Position numbers and translations under genes: made by a program. From an uncultured Candidatus Saccharibacteria bacterium (GTDB taxonomy: Bacteria > Patescibacteriota > Minisyncoccia > UBA6257 > UBA9933): DNA of 32,701 bases. The notes under the pieces were generated by a model. It ran no database searches and was not told the DNA's origin. It saw only the letters and a list, made by a program, of their open reading frames with translations. Of the stretch, positions 3,506 through 13,605 are shown piece after piece (the first letter of the stretch is position 1; every line of letters begins with the position of its first letter). Location: positions 2,194 through 34,894 of the forward strand of contig CAYZYY010000001.1 of NCBI GenBank assembly GCA_964482855.1, written 5' to 3'.

Positions 3506-3644
3506 GGTAGAAAATTCAAAATGTAAATATCAAAGTGAAAAATGACAGTGTAAAATTCAAAATTGGCAAATGTTAAAATCGGATTTTTAAATTTAATCAT
3601 TTTATAACTTTAATTTGTCATTTTGATTTTTGATTTTTTAACTT
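3506..3644. repeat. AT-rich structured spacer between secD and secF (same motif family as 1402-1530)
   Basis: AAAATTCAAAAT occurs as a direct repeat at 3511-3522 and 3552-3563. AAAATGACA (3539-3547) is inverted against TGTCATTTT (3616-3624). TTTTGATTTTTGATTTT runs span 3621-3637. Confidence 0.55.
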
Positions 3645-4874
3645 TTAATTTTTAACGAATACTCTTAACATCGTTCTCGTTACCGTGATTGCCGAAAACA
3701 TTGAAATTAAAACTCCTACCAAAAGCGCCAGGGCAAAACCCTTAATAAAGCTGCTGGTAAAATAATAAAGGATAATTGAGGTTATGAGCGTGGAAATGTT
3801 GGAATCCCGGATCGACGGCCAGGCCCGCTTAAATCCTTCTTCAATGGCCGAAACTTTGCTTAACCCCTTTTTTATTTCTTCTTTTGTTCTTTCAAAAATC
3901 AGGATGTTGGCGTCCACGGCCATACCGATGGAAAGAATAAATCCGGCAATTCCGGCAAGCGTCATGGTAATACCAAGTTTAAAAACCGCAGCCGTTAAAA
4001 TAACGTAAATAAGCAAAGCCAAAGAGGCAAAAATGCCGAATTTCCTGTAATAAATAAGCATAAAGATAATAATGGCCAAAGTTCCCAATAAGCCGCTGTA
4101 AATCGCTTTTTGCAACGATTCCTGCCCCAGGCTGGCGCCAATGGTTTGCTGACTGATAAGATTTATCGGCGCGGGCAGGGCGCCGGCATTAAACCTTTGG
4201 ACTATTTCCTTTGCCTCATCAACCGAAAAATCGCCTGTTATTTGAGCCCGACCGCCGGATATTCTTTCCTGAACTATTGGCATTTCAATCAAGCTGTTGT
4301 CCAGAAAAATCGCCAGAGGCCTGCCTACGTTCCTATCAGTAAGGTCTTCAAAAATTTTCGCGCCTTCATCGTTAAACTGAATGTTAATTTGGGGAAGGTT
4401 CGTGGTCCGATCAAACTCAAGTTGGGCGCCCTTAACAAAGCGGCCGGTAAGCTCGGTCGGGATAAACTGAACTTGCCGTTCGTCCCCGGTTTCTAATTTT
4501 TCCACTTCCCGAAAATCCAAAAGAGGAGTTTCTCCTATCATTTTAATGGCCTCGCTCACATCCCTGACGCCTGCCAGTTCAACAATGAGCCGCTGAGAAT
4601 CGCCTTCTTTGGCGGAAACAATCTGAGGTTCGCTGACTCCGTATAAATTAACCCGACGCTCAATCAAATCCCTTAGGCCGGAAACCACAGAATCGCGGTC
4701 CGCGGAATCAATCTTAGAAAGGTCGATTTCGTAAATCAGATGGGTTCCGCCGATTAAATCCAAACCCAGCCGCCAAGGACGAATTTTCGCCCCGAGCCAT
4801 CCGGGGTAAATGAAAATCGCGGCCGATACCGTTAAAATAACTATTGAAACTAATATAAGTTTTGAATTTTTCAT
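3645..4874 (-). CDS. secD: Protein-export membrane protein SecD
   Basis: N-terminal signal anchor, GLDLIGGTHL motif, a periplasmic-type domain and a C-terminal multi-TM block. The ATG at 4874 overlaps the nrdG TGA (ATGA). Confidence 0.95.
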   Translation of the reverse strand: MKNSKLILVSIVILTVSAAIFIYPGWLGAKIRPWRLGLDLIGGTHLIYEIDLSKIDSADRDSVVSGLRDLIERRVNLYGVSEPQIVSAKEGDSQRLIVELAGVRDVSEAIKMIGETPLLDFREVEKLETGDERQVQFIPTELTGRFVKGAQLEFDRTTNLPQINIQFNDEGAKIFEDLTDRNVGRPLAIFLDNSLIEMPIVQERISGGRAQITGDFSVDEAKEIVQRFNAGALPAPINLISQQTIGASLGQESLQKAIYSGLLGTLAIIIFMLIYYRKFGIFASLALLIYVILTAAVFKLGITMTLAGIAGFILSIGMAVDANILIFERTKEEIKKGLSKVSAIEEGFKRAWPSIRDSNISTLITSIILYYFTSSFIKGFALALLVGVLISMFSAITVTRTMLRVFVKN

Positions 4875-5585: not shown

Positions 5586-7694
5586 TTAAATTTTTCTTTT
5601 GGATATTTTAAACGCCTTTCTCTCGTTAAATTCCTGGGCTTTTCCGACATTAAACTGATTTACGGGCCTGAGATATCCGACGATTCTCGTATAAACTTCA
5701 CAAGGCTGTTCTATGGTGCACTTCGGACATTTAAAATGTTCTCCTTTCAAATAACCATGAGTGGGACAAATTGAAAAAGTGGGAGTTAGAGTAAGATAAG
5801 GCAATCTGAAATTCTTAAAAACTTTCTTAATTAAGGCCTTGGCCGTTTCAATATCGGAAATTCTTTCTCCCAAAAAAATGTGCATTACCACTCCACCGGT
5901 ATATTTGCATTGAATTTCATCCTGAAGACTGAGAGCTTCAAAAACATCGTCCGTATAATTTACCGGCAGCATCGTTGAGTTCGTATAATAAGGGGTTCTT
6001 TTCGTTCCGGCTGAAATGATTTCCGGATACTTTTTCTTGTCTTTCAGGGCCAAACGGTAAGCGGTGCCTTCCGCCGGAGTAGCTTCCAGATTATAAAGAT
6101 TATCCGTTTCTTTCTGATATTGTACCAGTTTCTCCCTCATAAAATCCATAATTTCAAGACTGAATTTTTTGCCTTTATTCGAGCCAATATCTTCTCCTAA
6201 AAAATTAAGCACAGCCTCATTCATCCCAACCAAACCAATCGTAGAAAAATGGTTTCCAAAATAACTTCCCCTGATTTTTTTTACTCCTTCCAGATAAAAC
6301 TTAGAATAAGGAAAGAGACCTTTTTCAATTAAATTTTCCAGGGCTTTTCTTTTGATTTCTAAACTTTCTTTGGCCAAATCCATCACTTTTTCCAGTCTTT
6401 CAAAAAATTCCTTTTTCGTTTTTGAAAGATAGCCTATTCGAGGCATATTTATCGTAACTACCCCCACGCTTCCGGTAAGAGGATTTGAGCCGAACAAACC
6501 GCCGCCTCTTTTCATTAATTCGCTATTGTCCAATCTAAGACGGCAACACATACTTCTGACATCCTCCGGGTTCATATCCGACTGAATAAAGTTGGAAAAA
6601 TAATTTACGCCATATTTTATCGTTGCTTCCCACATCGGCTGAAGAGCCGGCTCATCCCAAGGAAAATCATTGGTAATACTTATCGTCGGAATAGGAAAAG
6701 TGAAAACGCGCTGTTTGGCATCCCCCTCTAGAATCGCCTCAAAAAAGGCGCGGTTAAATGTTTTCATCTCTTCCTCAAATTCTCCATAGTTCTCCTTTTG
6801 GGGCTGTCCGCCAATGACAACCGATTGGTTGGCCAGCGTTGAAGGAGGAGTAATATCAAGAGAAATATTGGTAAAAGGAGTCTGAAATCCCACCCGGGTG
6901 GGTATGGCCATGTTAAATAAAAATTCCTGAATTGCCTGCTTAACCTGACGAAAATCCAAGTTGTCGTAACGGATAAAAGGAGCCAGAAGGGTGTCGAAAT
7001 TCGAAAACGCCTGGGCGCCGGCGCTTTCTCCCTGAAGAGTATAAAAGAAATTAACTATCTGTCCCAAGGCGGTCCGAAAATGCTTAGGCGGAGTTGATTC
7101 CACTTTTCCGGCAACACCTCTGAACCCCCTCATTAAAAGGTCTTGTAAATCCCAACCGCAGCAATACGTAGCTAAACTGTCTAAATCGTGAATATGAAAA
7201 TCACCGCTTTCAACCGCCTCTCTGACTTCAGGAGAATAAACCCCGTTTAACCAATATTTTTTGGTTACCAGCGAGGTAACGTAATGGTTAAGACCCTGAA
7301 GAGAATAAGCCATATTGGCGTTTTCCTTAACCTGCCAGTCCAATTCTTCAATGTACTGGTCAACCATCTCCACGGCTTCATCAATGGCAGTGACCGATTC
7401 TCTGATTCTTCTGTGCTGTTCCCGATATAAAATATAGGCCTTGGCAGTTTCAGTGTAGCCGTCCAATATTAAAACTTCTTCCACGATGTCCTGAAGCTGT
7501 TCAACCGTAGGAATTTCTTCGGGATGGTTTTTAAAACGGAGAAGCGCCAGCTTTATTACCTTGTCGGAAATTTTCTTCGCTTTTTTGCCGTCACCCTGAT
7601 GAGTGGCGGTTAGCGCCTTGGAGATGGCGTTGGTGATTTTCGTCTGGTCAAAAACGGCTATTTGACCGTCGCGTTTGCGAATGGATTTGAACAT
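5586..7694 (-). CDS. nrdD: Anaerobic (class III) ribonucleoside-triphosphate reductase
   Basis: N-terminal ATP-cone-like segment (IRKRDGQIAVFDQTKI...), a C-terminal Cys-rich Zn-ribbon (CPTHG...CPKC) and the glycyl-radical motif RIVGYLRP. 702 aa. Confidence 0.95.
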   Translation of the reverse strand: MFKSIRKRDGQIAVFDQTKITNAISKALTATHQGDGKKAKKISDKVIKLALLRFKNHPEEIPTVEQLQDIVEEVLILDGYTETAKAYILYREQHRRIRESVTAIDEAVEMVDQYIEELDWQVKENANMAYSLQGLNHYVTSLVTKKYWLNGVYSPEVREAVESGDFHIHDLDSLATYCCGWDLQDLLMRGFRGVAGKVESTPPKHFRTALGQIVNFFYTLQGESAGAQAFSNFDTLLAPFIRYDNLDFRQVKQAIQEFLFNMAIPTRVGFQTPFTNISLDITPPSTLANQSVVIGGQPQKENYGEFEEEMKTFNRAFFEAILEGDAKQRVFTFPIPTISITNDFPWDEPALQPMWEATIKYGVNYFSNFIQSDMNPEDVRSMCCRLRLDNSELMKRGGGLFGSNPLTGSVGVVTINMPRIGYLSKTKKEFFERLEKVMDLAKESLEIKRKALENLIEKGLFPYSKFYLEGVKKIRGSYFGNHFSTIGLVGMNEAVLNFLGEDIGSNKGKKFSLEIMDFMREKLVQYQKETDNLYNLEATPAEGTAYRLALKDKKKYPEIISAGTKRTPYYTNSTMLPVNYTDDVFEALSLQDEIQCKYTGGVVMHIFLGERISDIETAKALIKKVFKNFRLPYLTLTPTFSICPTHGYLKGEHFKCPKCTIEQPCEVYTRIVGYLRPVNQFNVGKAQEFNERKAFKISKRKI

Positions 7695-10680: not shown

Positions 10681-11143
10681 GCCGAAGAATTTCCTTGATA
10701 ACTTCGCTTACGGTTGAGGCGTCGGCTTTGCTTTTTAATTCTTTCATTGCTTCGCCCATTACTTTACCGAAATCCTTAATTTCTTTGGCTCCGGTTTTCT
10801 CAATCGCGGCTTTGACAACTTTCTCTATTTCCTCAACGGGCATTTCCTCGGGTAAATATTTTTTGATTATTTCCAGTTCCTTGGCTTCTTTTTCCGCCAA
10901 ATCATTCCGGCCGCCTTTTTTATACGCCTCTATCGCCTCCTTTCTTTTTTTCGCCTCTTTTGACAAAACCTCAATGATTTCTTCATCTGACAAGCCCGGT
11001 TCCGCATCCTTATTCTTGCTCTTTTTTTCAATTTCCCTGTTATGTATACTCGCCAAAACCATTCTAAAAATGCCGACCTCGAATTCCCGGCCGGCTTTCA
11101 TGGCTTGCTTCAAATTTTCGGTTATTGTTACGTGAATGGCCAT
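10673..11143 (-). CDS. yqeY: GatB/YqeY domain protein
   Basis: K/E-rich helical protein of ~156 aa with a YqeY-like N-terminus (LKQAMKAGREFEV...). The rpsU-yqeY neighbourhood matches the one known from Firmicutes. Confidence 0.85.
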   Translation of the reverse strand: MAIHVTITENLKQAMKAGREFEVGIFRMVLASIHNREIEKKSKNKDAEPGLSDEEIIEVLSKEAKKRKEAIEAYKKGGRNDLAEKEAKELEIIKKYLPEEMPVEEIEKVVKAAIEKTGAKEIKDFGKVMGEAMKELKSKADASTVSEVIKEILRHE

Positions 11144-11152
11144 AGTAATTTC

Positions 11153-11243
11153 AAATCTAAAATCTCAAATCTCAAAAATACATCTTAAAAATAAAATTTG
11201 AAAAGATTTAAAATTTGATTTGTAGATTTGAGATTTTAGATTT
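11153..11243 (-). repeat. Perfect 20-bp inverted repeat (long AU-rich hairpin) between rpsU and yqeY
   Basis: AAATCTAAAATCTCAAATCT (11153-11172) is the exact reverse complement of AGATTTGAGATTTTAGATTT (11224-11243). The right arm includes two bases of the rpsU stop codon, and the hairpin ends 9 nt before the yqeY ATG. Confidence 0.75.
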
Positions 11244-11451
11244 ACATTGTTCCCATTTTTTTCGCCTTTTCCACTTCTTTTCTCCTTTTTTCACGATGAA
11301 GGGCTGACCGGCGTTTTTTTAATTTGGAAGCCGGGCGGTCCCGGTATTTTCTCTTTTTTGCCTCGCGCAAAATTCCGCTTTGCTGAATTTTTTTGGAAAA
11401 GCGGTATAGAAAGGCGCTTATTGATTCTCCTTCTCTTCTTTTTACTTCCAT
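11242..11451 (-). CDS. rpsU: 30S ribosomal protein S21
   Basis: Small, highly basic protein (MEVKRREGESISAFLYRFSKK...KRRSALHREKRRK). The track start at 11466 is TTG, so the ATG at 11451 is preferred. Confidence 0.85.
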   Translation of the reverse strand: MEVKRREGESISAFLYRFSKKIQQSGILREAKKRKYRDRPASKLKKRRSALHREKRRKEVEKAKKMGTM

Positions 11452-11492
11452 GCCGTTTTTACCCAAGAACGATAGTGATTGGCTGTAAAACC

Positions 11493-11604
11493 GAGCACCC
11501 CGCCCTCTGGGCGTGTTAAATCATAAAAATTATTTTATCGAAATTAATTCTTAAATTGCAAATTACTCCTTATCCAACCCACATAGAAGGCGGGGTAAAG
11601 GTTT
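11493..11604 (-). repeat. Copy 1 of a ~112-nt intergenic element with GC-rich terminal inverted repeats
   Basis: GAGCACCCCGCCCTCTG (11493-11509), an AT-rich core, then AGAAGGCGGGGTAAAGGTTT (11585-11604). It aligns along its whole length with 12095-12207. Confidence 0.7.
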
Positions 11605-11619
11605 GATGTGTGAAAAATA

Positions 11620-12042
11620 CTACGCCTTTGGCTTGAATTTTTCAATCAAACTCTTTATCTCATCCAAACTTTCTTTCGGCGGGTTGTTTACCACGTCGTG
11701 AACCGAACCGCCGCCGTCATTGAACCATCTGGGTATTACGTGAATATGAAGATGCCCAACGGTCTGGCCACTAACCTTACCATGATTTATGCCTATTGTA
11801 AAACCATCGGGAGCCAGTGATTTATTCAATAATTCGGTGGTCTTTTTCACCGCCCTGAAAACCCCCTCTATTTCTCCGTCCGGCAATTCAAGGATGGTTT
11901 CCGCGTGAACTTTCGGCAAAACCATTACATGACCCGGAGACTTAGGATGGATATCGAGAATGACAAGGGCGCTCTCGTCCTCATAAATGTCCCATAAAGG
12001 GACTTCTTTATTAATAACTTTGCAAAAAAAGCAATCTGCCAT
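11620..12042 (-). CDS. HIT-family nucleotide hydrolase/transferase
   Basis: Histidine triad GHLHIHVIPR, 140 aa. ATG 12042. Confidence 0.9.
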   Translation of the reverse strand: MADCFFCKVINKEVPLWDIYEDESALVILDIHPKSPGHVMVLPKVHAETILELPDGEIEGVFRAVKKTTELLNKSLAPDGFTIGINHGKVSGQTVGHLHIHVIPRWFNDGGGSVHDVVNNPPKESLDEIKSLIEKFKPKA

Positions 12043-12094
12043 AATATTTTATAAATTTACGAACCGAAGGTGAAGAAAATTTATCTAAAATTTT

Positions 12095-12207
12095 GAGCAC
12101 CCCGCCCTCTGTATCTATCAAATAATAACTGAATCATAAATTTTATCATTAATTTTCTAAAAGCGTTTACTTTTATTCAACAAACATGGAAGGCGGGGCT
12201 AAAGTTT
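12095..12207 (-). repeat. Copy 2 of the ~112-nt intergenic element
   Basis: GAGCACCCCGCCCTCTG (12095-12111), an AT-rich core sharing AATCATAAA, TTTTATC and ATTAATT blocks with copy 1, then GGAAGGCGGGGCTAAAGTTT (12188-12207). Confidence 0.7.
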
Positions 12208-12255
12208 AATAAATAAATTTCGTTCTCCTGGTGGCTCCGAAATTTATATTAAGCC

Positions 12256-13605
12256 TTAAGTTTTTTTCCTTAATTTCCTCTTTACCACGTCAACCGCTTT
12301 AATCAACGGCACTGTTTCCTGAGTCCCGCTCTTCATATCCCTGATGATAATATTTTCTTCAAAAAATTCCTTTTGTCCCAAAATTAAAGCCAGTTCCACT
12401 TCTTCCTTGTTGGCTATTTTGAGCTGGGATTTAAGCGATTCCTTACCCAAAGATTCAATTACCTTAATGTCGGCCCGGCGAAATTCTTCAACCAGACTAA
12501 AAGCTCTTTTCTTTGCCGGTTTTCCAATCTGAATCAGAAAAACTTTCGATTTGGCCGCGGAAAGACCGCGAATTTCCAGGGTTTTCATTAATTCAATAAT
12601 CCGTTCAACCCCTAAACTGTTTCCCACCGCGGGAAGGGCGCTTTTCTTTCCCCCGATAATTTCTCCCAGATAATCATAACGGCCTCCTCCGCCCAGGGCA
12701 AGATTATAATCTTCGGTCATTATTTCAAAAACCGTCCGGTTATAATAATCCAATCCCCTGACCAAATGAGAATTTAAAACATAGGGCAATTCCAATTCAT
12801 CCAAATATTCCAAAACCCCGCGAAAATGGCCGCGACAATTTGAACAAAGATAATCAATCGTTGCCGGGGCTTTGATTTTTATCCCTTCGCAGTTCTCGTT
12901 CTTACAATCAAGAAGGCGGAGAGGATTCAACGACAGGCGCCGACGGCAATCTTTGCAGATTCTGGAAGAAAATCTTCGGTAATAATCCTGCAGCTTTTTG
13001 CGATAAATCAATCTGCAACTTTTACACCCGAGACTGTTAATCTGAATGGTTAAATTTTTTATTTTTAATTCCTCAATCAGACGGAAAAGAACTAAAATTG
13101 CCTGGGCGTCATAAATGGGATTGTCTTCTCCTCCCAGAATTTCGAAACCAACCTGATAAAACTGCCTGTAGCGGCCGAATTGGGGCTGTTCATAGCGGAA
13201 AAAGGGGCCGAAATAATAAAGTTTCAGCGGCTGGGAAAGACGGGATAAACCGTGTTCGAAATAAGCCCTGACTATTCCCGGGGTATTTTCCGGACGAAGA
13301 GCCATATAGTCTCTTCCCCTGGTTTTGATAGTAAACATTTGTTTTTCAACGATGTCCGTATAAATACCCGTGCCTCTTTCAAAAATTTCCGCGTCTTCCA
13401 AAATCGGCGTGTCAATTCTTGAAAAATTGTAAAAATTAGCCACTTCCTGGCTGGTTTTTCTCAATTTCTCCCACCAGGGCTGTTCTGACGGCAAAATATC
13501 GCGCATACCCTTGGGAGATTGCAATATCTTTTTTTCCTTTTTCTCCTTTTTATCTTTTTTTCCTTTTGTGACTTTTTTGCTTTTACGCTTTGAAGATTTA
13601 GGCAT
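12256..13605 (-). CDS. hisS: Histidine--tRNA ligase with a lysine-rich N-terminal extension
   Basis: GMRDILP, FRYEQPQFGRYRQFYQ (motif 2-like) and GGGGRYD (motif 3-like), plus a Cys-rich insertion containing NPLRLLDCKN. The first ~27 aa (PKSSKRKSKKVTKGKKDKKEKKEKK) precede the usual start of the family. Confidence 0.95.
   Translation of the reverse strand: MPKSSKRKSKKVTKGKKDKKEKKEKKILQSPKGMRDILPSEQPWWEKLRKTSQEVANFYNFSRIDTPILEDAEIFERGTGIYTDIVEKQMFTIKTRGRDYMALRPENTPGIVRAYFEHGLSRLSQPLKLYYFGPFFRYEQPQFGRYRQFYQVGFEILGGEDNPIYDAQAILVLFRLIEELKIKNLTIQINSLGCKSCRLIYRKKLQDYYRRFSSRICKDCRRRLSLNPLRLLDCKNENCEGIKIKAPATIDYLCSNCRGHFRGVLEYLDELELPYVLNSHLVRGLDYYNRTVFEIMTEDYNLALGGGGRYDYLGEIIGGKKSALPAVGNSLGVERIIELMKTLEIRGLSAAKSKVFLIQIGKPAKKRAFSLVEEFRRADIKVIESLGKESLKSQLKIANKEEVELALILGQKEFFEENIIIRDMKSGTQETVPLIKAVDVVKRKLRKKT

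Follow-up and report, generated by a model that had tools for sequence, protein, structure and literature searches.

Several families of small hairpin-forming repeats are known to lie between bacterial and phage genes. ERIC (IRU) and REP/BIME/REPIN sequences of Proteobacteria are imperfect palindromes in the transcribed intergenic regions of operons, and hairpins of this type can affect mRNA stability. The intercistronic RNase III sites of phage T7 are related hairpins with internal loops that stand in sense orientation in polycistronic mRNA and leave a stabilising 3′ hairpin on the upstream message, and ribosomal-protein genes may have structured 5′ regions of their own, such as the autoregulatory L10, L20 and S15 leaders in Rfam. 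The genomes of the candidate phyla radiation (CPR, or Patescibacteria) are ∼1 Mb in size, tightly packed and poor in repeats, and to our knowledge almost nothing is known about their promoters, leaders and mRNA processing. Correia elements (CREE/NEMIS) of Neisseria are non-coding units of ∼100–150 bp that are bounded by inverted repeats, lie between genes, are co-transcribed as hairpins and vary in presence among strains; they are reported to create promoters and to be bound or cut by RNase III (PMC2649163), and Correia, ERIC and REPIN sequences have been listed as promoter-bearing mobile elements (PMC3575422). The latter paper also summarises putative mobile promoters, which are closely similar upstream regions found before unrelated genes, within genomes as well as across distant taxa, mostly without an Rfam match and with an unknown way of moving (Matus-Garcia, Nijveen and van Passel 2012; PMC3575422). 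Here we analyse a 32.7-kb stretch of DNA (contig CAYZYY010000001.1, positions 2,194 to 34,894; hereafter the window), in which the junctions between hisS and HIT and between HIT and rpsU hold two homologous, co-oriented copies of an undescribed hairpin-forming non-coding cassette. We found no description of such elements in the CPR in the open-access literature.

Like Correia elements, the cassette is a non-coding intergenic unit with inverted-repeat ends that varies in presence among strains and is probably co-transcribed as a hairpin; these elements are its best parallel, in function only. They are characterised by a 26-bp inverted repeat, a TA duplication and an IHF site. No sequence relationship to them is evident, and the ends of the cassette, read by eye, show neither a TA duplication nor any other duplicated target. 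Hundreds of Correia copies are spread in both orientations, whereas the cassettes are all co-oriented and few per locus; moreover, the cassette has a conserved leader that lies outside the inverted repeat, against the start codon, and its host has a streamlined CPR genome. ERIC sequences (∼127 bp) are limited to enterobacteria and vibrios, REP units are only 20–40 nt long and depend on a RAYT transposase, a gene that we did not see here, and neither type is tied to start codons or ribosomal-protein operons, unlike the cassette. The T7 sites share with it the sense-oriented hairpin with internal loops between cistrons, which is predicted for the cassette, but they are phage-encoded and ∼60 nt long, and have neither polymorphic insertion nor an internal promoter. 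Known autoregulatory ribosomal-protein leaders each serve a single operon and imitate a single rRNA site, whereas the cassette precedes six translation genes plus HIT and matches no Rfam leader. The putative mobile promoters form a purely statistical class with no defined structure; the cassette has a three-hairpin anatomy that includes a leader running to the ATG.

Two copies of one cassette in the hisS-HIT-rpsU operon

The genes of the locus lie on the minus strand in the order hisS (13605..12256), HIT (12042..11620), rpsU (11451..11242), yqeY, ybeY, ftsA and ftsZ, with identities assigned by Pfam. The G+C content of the window is 40%, and because its HisRS is closest, among named relatives, to a protein of Candidatus Wolfebacteria (82% identity), the organism is placed by this similarity among the Parcubacteria (CPR/Patescibacteria), near Candidatus Wolfebacteria. 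A sequence-only reading of this DNA had claimed a pair of homologous elements in the same orientation, and the pair is real: the 17-mer GAGCACCCCGCCCTCTG occurs exactly twice in the window, at 11493 and 12095 of the plus strand, and is followed in both copies after 88–89 nt by its partner arm GAAGGCGGGG, at 11586 and 12189. With up to three mismatches allowed, 0.03 matches to GAGCACCCCGCCCTCTG are expected, and two were reached in none of 100 shuffles. The blocks AATCATAAA, TTTTATC and ATTAATT, which had been named as shared, are found in the AT-rich cores of both copies, and the proposed terminal stem of 10–12 bp was recovered as well, with arms that pair over 13 bp in copy 1 (HIT–rpsU) and 11 bp in copy 2 (hisS–HIT) and, as had been noted, a single U·G wobble in the minus (gene) sense. 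The interiors of the two copies are homologous only in blocks, and hence the copies are not recent twins. Neither an arm search nor a covariance model (R1) revealed a third copy or a solitary arm within the window.

When copies from other genomes were aligned with those of the window, the repeat was seen to span everything between the stop codon of one gene and the ATG of the next, such that the whole spacer is filled. The units are therefore 11452-11619 and 12043-12255, because a conserved 3′ tail of 40–55 nt runs to the ATG of rpsU or HIT and because copy 2 has in addition a 5′ hairpin that begins at the hisS stop codon; the ∼112-nt unit described earlier missed both the leader and the 5′ hairpin. 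Nor does it carry special meaning that the two copies flank HIT, as they are two independent fillings of neighbouring intercistronic gaps. The layout of the cassette comprises an optional 5′ hairpin, a GC clamp of 12–13 bp (ACCCCGCCUUCU/AGAGGGCGGGGU, one U·G) around an AT-rich interior of ∼75 nt, and the conserved leader. The arms measure 11–13 bp and in some copies reach ∼18 bp (ACCCCGCCTTCTAAGCTT/AAGCTTAGAGGGCGGGGT) with outer AAAACC/GGTTTT blocks. After the 3′ arm, the leader consists of GCUC, GGUUUUA, a hairpin of 4–6 bp with the loop UCACU(A)UCGUUC, UAAAA, and 4–5 nt before the ATG. Several copies, copy 2 among them, start with (A)GGGCUUUGU directly after the stop codon, followed by the extra hairpin, the 3′ strand of which is ACAAAACCUUUA. 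Inside the clamp, a second stem of ∼11 bp stands in the same register in copies 1 and 2 despite unlike 3′ strands (CCCGCAC versus CAUAGAU), and its differences between the two copies are mostly G–C to G·U changes, with one double change. Terminal inverted repeats are thus present as in miniature inverted-repeat transposable elements (MITEs), with the conserved leader outside the repeat.

The cassette recurs before translation genes of other Parcubacteria

Using the pattern CACCCCGCCCTC-N65-95-GAAGGCGGGG, we scanned one representative genome for each of 185,579 species, ignoring gene context. Among the 31 matches, 29 were chance matches in GC-rich genomes and two were in Parcubacteria, namely Ca. 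Nealsonbacteria RIFOXYB1_FULL_40_15 (locus L014) and Ca. Yanofskybacteria RIFCSPLOWO2_02_FULL_41_13 (L024, two copies). A scan of metagenomes added copies on L032, L033 and L036, together with duplicates of L014 and L024, and the identical clamp is present at seven sites beyond the window, which belong to no fewer than five further genomes or populations of Parcubacteria. With the window pair included, the nine sites are all intergenic, co-oriented with both neighbour genes and end at an ATG. The junctions are nusG–rplK (L014 and L033), the spacer before rpsL and rpsG–fusA (both L024), rpsM–rpsK (L032), rpsN–rpsH (L036), and hisS–HIT and HIT–rpsU in the window. Cassettes are always oriented as the genes, and they lie overwhelmingly before translation genes, which account for six of the seven distinct downstream gene types; with translation-apparatus genes estimated at about one-tenth of such a genome, the chance probability is of the order of 1e-5, a rough figure for sites that are only partly independent. 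Copy 1, copy 2 and L033 have homologous interiors, those of L014, L024 and L036 are unrelated, and the tails of copy 1 (before rpsU) and L032 (before rpsK) are a single 1-nt indel apart.

So far the family is known from Parcubacteria alone. The R1 model, run over ∼475 kb of Parcubacteria loci, detected no diverged full-size copies beyond those already known, and returned only the short relatives described below, at 19–32 bits. A scan of viral contigs gave no match, and neither did BLASTN of both cassettes against plasmids and phages. A scan against Rfam, which had been suggested earlier, identified no family at the gathering threshold in the window or in eight related loci, and at E-values up to 10 the region 11100-12400 produced only plant microRNA-precursor hairpins far below threshold (17–24 bits versus thresholds of 83–140). 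ARAGORN found no tRNA or tmRNA, and among the neighbour genes examined no transposase adjoined any copy.

Cassettes are inserted, lost and replaced

The gene order lepB-hisS-HIT-rpsU-yqeY-ybeY-ftsA-ftsZ is conserved in four relatives, yet the hisS–HIT spacing of 213 nt in the window contrasts with 2 nt in L046 (82% HisRS identity), an overlap in L048 (74%), 2 nt in L050 (73%) and 4 nt in L064 (77%). The element was not found in L046, L048 and L050 with model R1, nor in L064, which was read directly. At the HIT–rpsU junction the genes overlap in L048, L064 has an unrelated ACGAC-type hairpin (59 nt), L050 has an AT-rich hairpin of ∼75 nt, and the spacer of L046 follows copy 1 colinearly. It has retained TTGCAATTTAAGAGTTAATTTTGATAAAAT, TAATTTGCAATTTAAGAGTTAATTTTGATAAAATAGTTTTTAATTTAA as its loop core, and the leader (...TTGGTTTTATAACCAA...TTCTTGGGTAAAAATGAT-ATG); the 5′ arm is missing and an AT-rich stretch of the same length stands in place of the 3′ arm, in DNA with a G+C content of 29% versus 40% in the window. 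The cassettes were inserted into a hisS-HIT-rpsU operon that was ancestrally compact.

The rpsM–rpsK junction varies among strains. The element is present there in L032, L037 and L038, and is replaced by 53 unrelated nt in L039 despite an identical S11 protein, with the difference running exactly to the ATG; in genomes with 84–85% identical S11 the gap is 1–9 nt. Both the presence/absence polymorphism (rpsM–rpsK strains) and the insertion relative to relatives (hisS–HIT, filled only in the window) that are expected of a MITE are therefore seen, and strains and lineages differ by gain, loss and replacement of cassettes. A conserved leader is not what the element is, because orthologous junctions are empty in relatives, strains with identical S11 differ and L046 has lost its arms. 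Among the candidates of the sequence-only reading, two are left without support by the empty orthologous junctions, namely a small RNA that stands alone and a cis-regulatory element conserved with hisS, HIT or rpsU, and a dispersed MITE/REP-like repeat fits best, given the copies in other Parcubacteria, the variable presence among strains and the insertion relative to four relatives.

Two observations bear on the 3′ boundary. HIT of the window begins MADCFF (ATG-GCA-GAT), whereas its counterparts in the four relatives begin MDCFF or MCFF, and the extra GCA codon adjoins the cassette ATG. Moreover, at the end of the L033 leader stands an orphan ATGGCA, the start of an open reading frame (ORF) of 10 codons, ∼200 nt before the real rplK ATGGCA. 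Together they suggest that the cassette carries or reaches into the start codon. The ∼200 nt between the orphan ATGGCA (MASRSISREM) and rplK (L052 6250-6456, equal to L033 9055-9250, minus strand) hold GC hairpins, AUGGGCGAUGCGCUUCGCCCAU and GUGCCUAUUCGGCAC; this stretch has no match in Rfam and may represent a further inserted cassette or a leader of rplK.

Folding and covariation

Folded as minus-sense RNA, the two window copies reached −39.6 (copy 1) and −34.6 kcal/mol (copy 2), with z-scores of −4.62 and −4.87 and none of 200 shuffles as good; the plus-sense values of −27.2 and −21.4 kcal/mol (z of −1.57 and −1.76) were not exceptional. The sense strand was the more stable one in 7 of 8 copies, with many G·U pairs. 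For copy 1, copy 2 and both L024 copies (L024a and L024b), the predicted sense-RNA helix extends over ∼28–30 bp and is interrupted by two internal loops, and in L032 and L036 only the 11–12 bp of the clamp pair in the predicted fold. The sense-specific z-scores and the G·U excess are compatible with the structured, co-transcribed RNA favoured by the sequence-only reading, though short of proving it, and the hairpin may have a role in RNA processing.

Across the five tails compared, the leader hairpin is always paired, with changes in both partners at three of its four base pairs (CCAA/UUGG, UCAA/UUGA, UUAC/GUAA), a result that 2 of 500 shuffles equalled. No covariation was detected within the GC clamp among the copies compared, and therefore its pairing is neither supported nor opposed; a check for covariation had been proposed for this terminal stem. 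The clamp of L038 has one uncompensated mismatch, and in L024b the U·G position is swapped to C·A. Accessibility of the start codon was considered and rejected as a distinguishing feature, since the mean unpaired probability near the AUG (0.33–0.63) is no different from that of the rest of the cassette (0.37–0.48).

A promoter-like core and a probable leader for the next gene

Within the loop of copy 1, a promoter scan identified TTGCAA-18-TAAAAT. This core is conserved, with an added TG (TGATAAAAT), in the orthologous spacer of the nearest relative, L046, the loop of copy 2 likewise holds TGATAAAAT, and L032 and L033 share ...AAT(T/C)AATAAA(A)TAATTTT at 11–12 nt before the 3′ arm. The internal promoter that had been proposed from the motif (T/C)GATAAAAT thus gained support from TTGCAA-N18-TAAAAT, kept with TG in a spacer that has lost its GC arms, but the other copies are indecisive, and because their AT-rich loops offer many weak hexamers and no decisive one, the promoter stays putative. 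As judged from these motifs, the cassette probably brings a promoter and a leader for the next gene. With a start ∼7 nt downstream of the −10 hexamer, the transcript would contain the 3′ arm and the leader only, and the long hairpin would form only in read-through operon transcripts. A candidate promoter in the tail (TTTACA ... TAAAAA) was discarded, as its spacing of 21–22 nt is too long. No GGAGG-type Shine-Dalgarno sequence was seen before any of the ∼34 genes of the window, positions −1 to −15 being A/T-rich (ataaaaATG; for example at 1383, 8963, 10234 and 14217), and this Parcubacterium seems to use Shine-Dalgarno-independent initiation.

A short relative of the cassette

In the genome of L032 and L037-L039, a 'mini' element of the form CTACAAAAYMTTTA-TCCCGCC-(19-20 nt)-GGCGGGA-TGCTGAGAATTT... 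fills the distance from stop to start at infA–rpmJ, rpsM–rpsK, rpsK–rpsD and rpoA–rplQ. Its flanks are the same as those of the full-size cassette, a U–A pair replaces the first C–G of the clamp, and then follows GACCC-UACG-GGGAUC, a UNCG tetraloop hairpin. One copy, at L037 5285-5320, has unchanged flanks around a loop that is reverse-complementary to that of the others, which indicates that the arms recombine as DNA.

Origin and role of the cassette

We read these elements as a family of palindromic intercistronic cassettes that are functionally analogous to Correia/ERIC/MITE-type repeats and probably carry a promoter and a leader, a view that we find as easy to hold as to doubt. The likeness to small palindromic co-transcribed repeats is drawn because of the inverted-repeat ends, the AT-rich non-coding interior, the occurrence in several lineages, the insertion, the strain polymorphism and the decay of the ends; the cassettes are kept outside every named family because of their strict co-orientation, the leader beyond the repeat at the ATG, their replacement, the bias to translation operons and a clamp that is identical across classes. 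Insertion would break the tight spacing or overlap of cistrons, and the cassette would be tolerated or selected for its own expression signals, which may consist of a promoter of the sigma-70 type within the AT-rich loop (TTGCAA-N18-TAAAAT, with a TG extension in copy 2) and a leader without a Shine-Dalgarno sequence, possibly with the ATG-GCA start too. In read-through operon transcripts, the arms would pair into an interrupted helix of ∼30 bp, and this would probably be an RNase III site or a 3′-end stabiliser that uncouples the neighbour cistrons. The GC arms may be the ends used for copying or recombining the cassette and would decay after fixation, as in L046, and spread could occur by transposition in trans or by recombination aided by the conserved flanking ribosomal-protein genes.

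Several points weigh against this reading. MITEs are not typically so strictly co-oriented and do not typically have a tail beyond their inverted repeat, no consistent direct repeat (target-site duplication) is seen at the ends of the eight copies, and what distinguishes the filled allele (L037) from the empty one (L039) is the replacement of 53 nt, with no clean empty site. The copies seen number 2 in the 32.7-kb window, 2 in 8 kb of L024 and 1 elsewhere (8–33 kb covered per genome), and no autonomous element or transposase with matching ends turned up in scans whose patterns could not span a transposase-sized gap. The clamp is identical across Parcubacteria classes while the interiors are unrelated, which could mean a sequence-specific function and not mobility, although part of this invariance comes from a search pattern that demanded exact arms. 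The G·U excess could reflect a C-to-T bias on the non-template strand instead of selection on RNA. As for the promoter, its support consists of consensus resemblance and one conserved orthologue, and the remaining copies show only generic TAnnnT hexamers 11–15 nt before the 3′ arm, with no single convincing −35/−10 pair.

The main rival is a shared cis-regulatory RNA leader, in which a common factor would read the clamp and the internal loop (CUUUA/UGCUC) in the mRNA and jointly control how well many translation-apparatus messages are translated or how stable they are, as a post-transcriptional regulon. Such a factor would suit the facts that most independent sites precede ribosomal-protein or EF-G genes, that the orientation is identical at all sites, that the fold is specific to the sense strand, that the leader hairpin covaries, and that clamp and flanks, unlike the interiors, are the same in Nealsonbacteria, in Yanofskybacteria and in the Wolfebacteria-like genome of the window. 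It is weakened by the pattern of gain and loss and by the armless copy of L046: the element is missing from the orthologous junctions of close relatives, varies in presence among strains with identical S11, and in L046 has lost both arms and kept the remainder. The uncompensated clamp mismatch in L038, the copy that precedes HIT and the L033 leader that ends in an orphan ATG 200 nt before rplK also tell against it, and the clamp without covariation is neutral on pairing. We consider this rival unlikely. A leader specific to one ribosomal-protein operon was rejected, since the same element stands before six different translation genes and HIT and is missing from orthologues. The two inverted CCCCGCCYTC boxes might instead act as DNA, either as operators on both sides of a promoter, where a DNA-binding protein would repress or insulate it by looping, or as a supercoil-dependent cruciform, and the flipped loop of the mini-hairpin indeed shows arms interacting as DNA; but the G·U-rich inner stems pair only in the sense RNA, the mini-family loop of ∼19 nt is too short for a promoter, the arm spacing is not integral in helical turns and no candidate regulator is known. 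Even with arms conserved in sequence beyond pairing alone, a T/C arm difference that is kept in 7 copies, swapped in L024b and never resolved to a perfect pair, an arm-to-arm spacing of 85–90 bp in seven copies and 77 bp in L032 (from coordinates), and a promoter-like core between the arms, a DNA-level device seems very improbable to us.

The adjacency of the two window copies might also suggest a junction of terminator and promoter, or a plain intercistronic stabiliser hairpin, that arose locally by duplication between adjoining spacers and without mobility. The hairpin does follow a stop codon, a short U run comes after GCUC and 2–4 further bases, and one terminator-like site was flagged inside the 3′ arm of copy 1. 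The same element nevertheless occupies six other junction types in other genomes, its loop of ∼75 nt (versus the 3–8 nt required) and a U run 6–9 nt past the stem are the wrong geometry for an intrinsic (Rho-independent) terminator, which was rejected on these grounds, and the region has 6 terminator-like sites versus 4.7 expected from shuffles; a purely local origin is decidedly unlikely. That the element itself encodes a small RNA or a tiny peptide is, in our view, hardly credible. The structure is discrete and stable and both window copies contain a four-codon mini-ORF, ATG-xxx-GTT-GxA-TAA, but this frame (MWVG*/MFVE*) was rejected because it is not conserved in L024, L032 and L036, the element has neither a terminator nor an independent upstream promoter, and the plus-strand fold is no better than that of shuffles, with no Rfam match. 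An integron attC site was also discarded, because the ends ACAAAACC ... GGTTTTAC do not conform to RYYYAAC ... GTTRRRY (GTTTTAC fails GTTRRRY at position 4) and because the context is ribosomal-protein operons and not cassette arrays.

Beyond the palindromic-repeat reading preferred here, a more speculative extension, which we regard as quite unlikely, is that the elements are interchangeable hairpin-bounded 'expression cassettes' (promoter, leader and ATG-GCA start) that are swapped among the translation-operon junctions of Parcubacteria lacking Shine-Dalgarno sequences, with the CCCCGCC/GGCGGGG clamp and the CUUUA/UGCUC internal loop as the site of a dedicated factor, be it a nuclease, a recombinase or a regulator that co-controls ribosomal-protein synthesis. 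If so, the element would be a regulon-wide RNA or DNA signal and not a selfish repeat. A repeat family that occupies operons as essential as those of the ribosomal proteins would be the first 'mobile promoter/leader' to be described in the CPR, and the cassette would offer a sequence for mapping transcription starts and RNase processing of CPR bacteria in metatranscriptomes, a marker of recent recombination among strains and a candidate new RNA family. The features of both window copies and the mini-element copies are listed in Table 1.

Table 1. Positions of cassette features in the window and of mini-element copies in other loci
Feature	Position	Strand	Basis or remark
Copy 1, whole cassette: complete HIT–rpsU spacer, 168 nt	11452..11619	-	between HIT stop 11620-11622 and rpsU ATG 11449-11451
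Copy 1, GC clamp 5′ arm, sense UACCCCGCCUUCU	11585..11597	-	fold and arm search
Copy 1, GC clamp 3′ arm, sense AGAGGGCGGGGUG, then conserved CUC	11496..11508	-	pattern search and fold
Copy 1, outer helix 5′ strand AAACC; partner GGUUU 11488-11492 across internal loop UU/CUC	11600..11604	-	fold
Copy 1, inner stem 5′ strand GUGGGUUGGAU; partner AUUUAACACGC 11511-11521	11572..11582	-	fold; register as in copy 2
Copy 1, promoter-like core: TTGCAA 11561-11556, 18 nt, TAAAAT 11537-11532	11532..11561	-	promoter scan; conserved in L046
Copy 1, leader hairpin CCAA-UCACUAUCGUUC-UUGG	11463..11482	-	3 of 4 pairs covary among copies
Copy 1, A-rich pre-start GUAAAAACGGC and rpsU ATG, without Shine-Dalgarno sequence	11449..11462	-	sequence reading
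Copy 2, whole cassette: complete hisS–HIT spacer, 213 nt	12043..12255	-	relatives: 2-4 nt or overlap
Copy 2, 5′ hairpin AAAUUUCG-GAGCCACCAGGAGAA-CGAAAUUU	12215..12245	-	homologous to 5′ module of L024b and L036
Copy 2, GC clamp 5′ arm, sense GCCCCGCCUUC	12189..12199	-	pattern search and fold
Copy 2, GC clamp 3′ arm, sense GAGGGCGGGGU, then conserved GCUC	12099..12109	-	pattern search and fold
Copy 2, inner stem 5′ strand UGUUUGUUGAA; partner UUUGAUAGAUA 12112-12122	12176..12186	-	fold
Copy 2, extended −10-like TGATAAAAT in loop	12140..12148	-	core comparison
Copy 2, leader hairpin AAAUUU-UCUUCACCUUCGGUUCGU-AAAUUU, containing C-UUCG-G	12053..12082	-	tail alignment and fold
HIT start ATG-GCA; GCA codon missing in HIT of four relatives	12037..12042	-	ortholog comparison
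Mini-element copies	L032 2631-2697, 3326-3392; L037 2970-3036, 3665-3731, 5272-5339; L039 3485-3551, 4152-4218		

Other hairpin families and neighbouring genes

Gene spacing in these operons is repeatedly remodelled by several unrelated hairpin families. Long AT-rich hairpins of the AAATCTAAAATCT type, with units AAATCTMAAATCT / AAAATTCAAAATTC and unrelated to the cassette, lie in the window at 11146-11243, 1372-1537 and 3511-3651; their arms reach up to 37 nt with 84% complementarity, and they fill whole spacers (rpsU–yqeY and two others) up to the next ATG. Similar AT-rich hairpins are found at rpsU–yqeY and lepB–hisS in L064, at HIT–rpsU in L050 and at tuf–rpsJ in L037. Hairpin families rich in TACGAAA (ending TTCGTAGAGAAAAWC-ATG) or in ACGAC/GTCGT are present at L037 2361-2560 and 5237-5888 and at L064 4285-4343, and they hold junctions that are filled by other cassettes in sister strains, for example infA–rpmJ, which differs between L037 and L039. 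A variant of the clamp, ACCCCGCACCTTTTGTC ... ACAAAAGGTG, stands after rpsK and encloses a GC-rich structured stretch of >100 nt (L039 4719-4872; L037 1966-2150), and the related TCCCGCACCTTTTGTCGGC opens the spacer before infA.

Contigs of the Ca. Wolfebacteria GW2011 type (L056 8786-9039 and 9886-10000) have a repeat of their own, ATGCCAATATGCGAATGG, at gyrB–secE and nusG–rplK, and these contigs also show a promoter close to the consensus, TTGACA-16-TAGCAT, which stands before a GCCGCC hairpin and a run of T. In several of the genomes compared, small ORFs of 85–92 aa for stand-alone GIY-YIG nucleases were seen near ribosomal-protein or infA regions (L038 1738-2016; L043 7767-8024; L056 4451-4711). 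The anaerobic ribonucleotide reductase NrdD encoded at L048 15442-18768 contains an intein (PF14890) and is 1108 aa long, and NrdD of the window (5586-7694) is intein-free with 702 aa.

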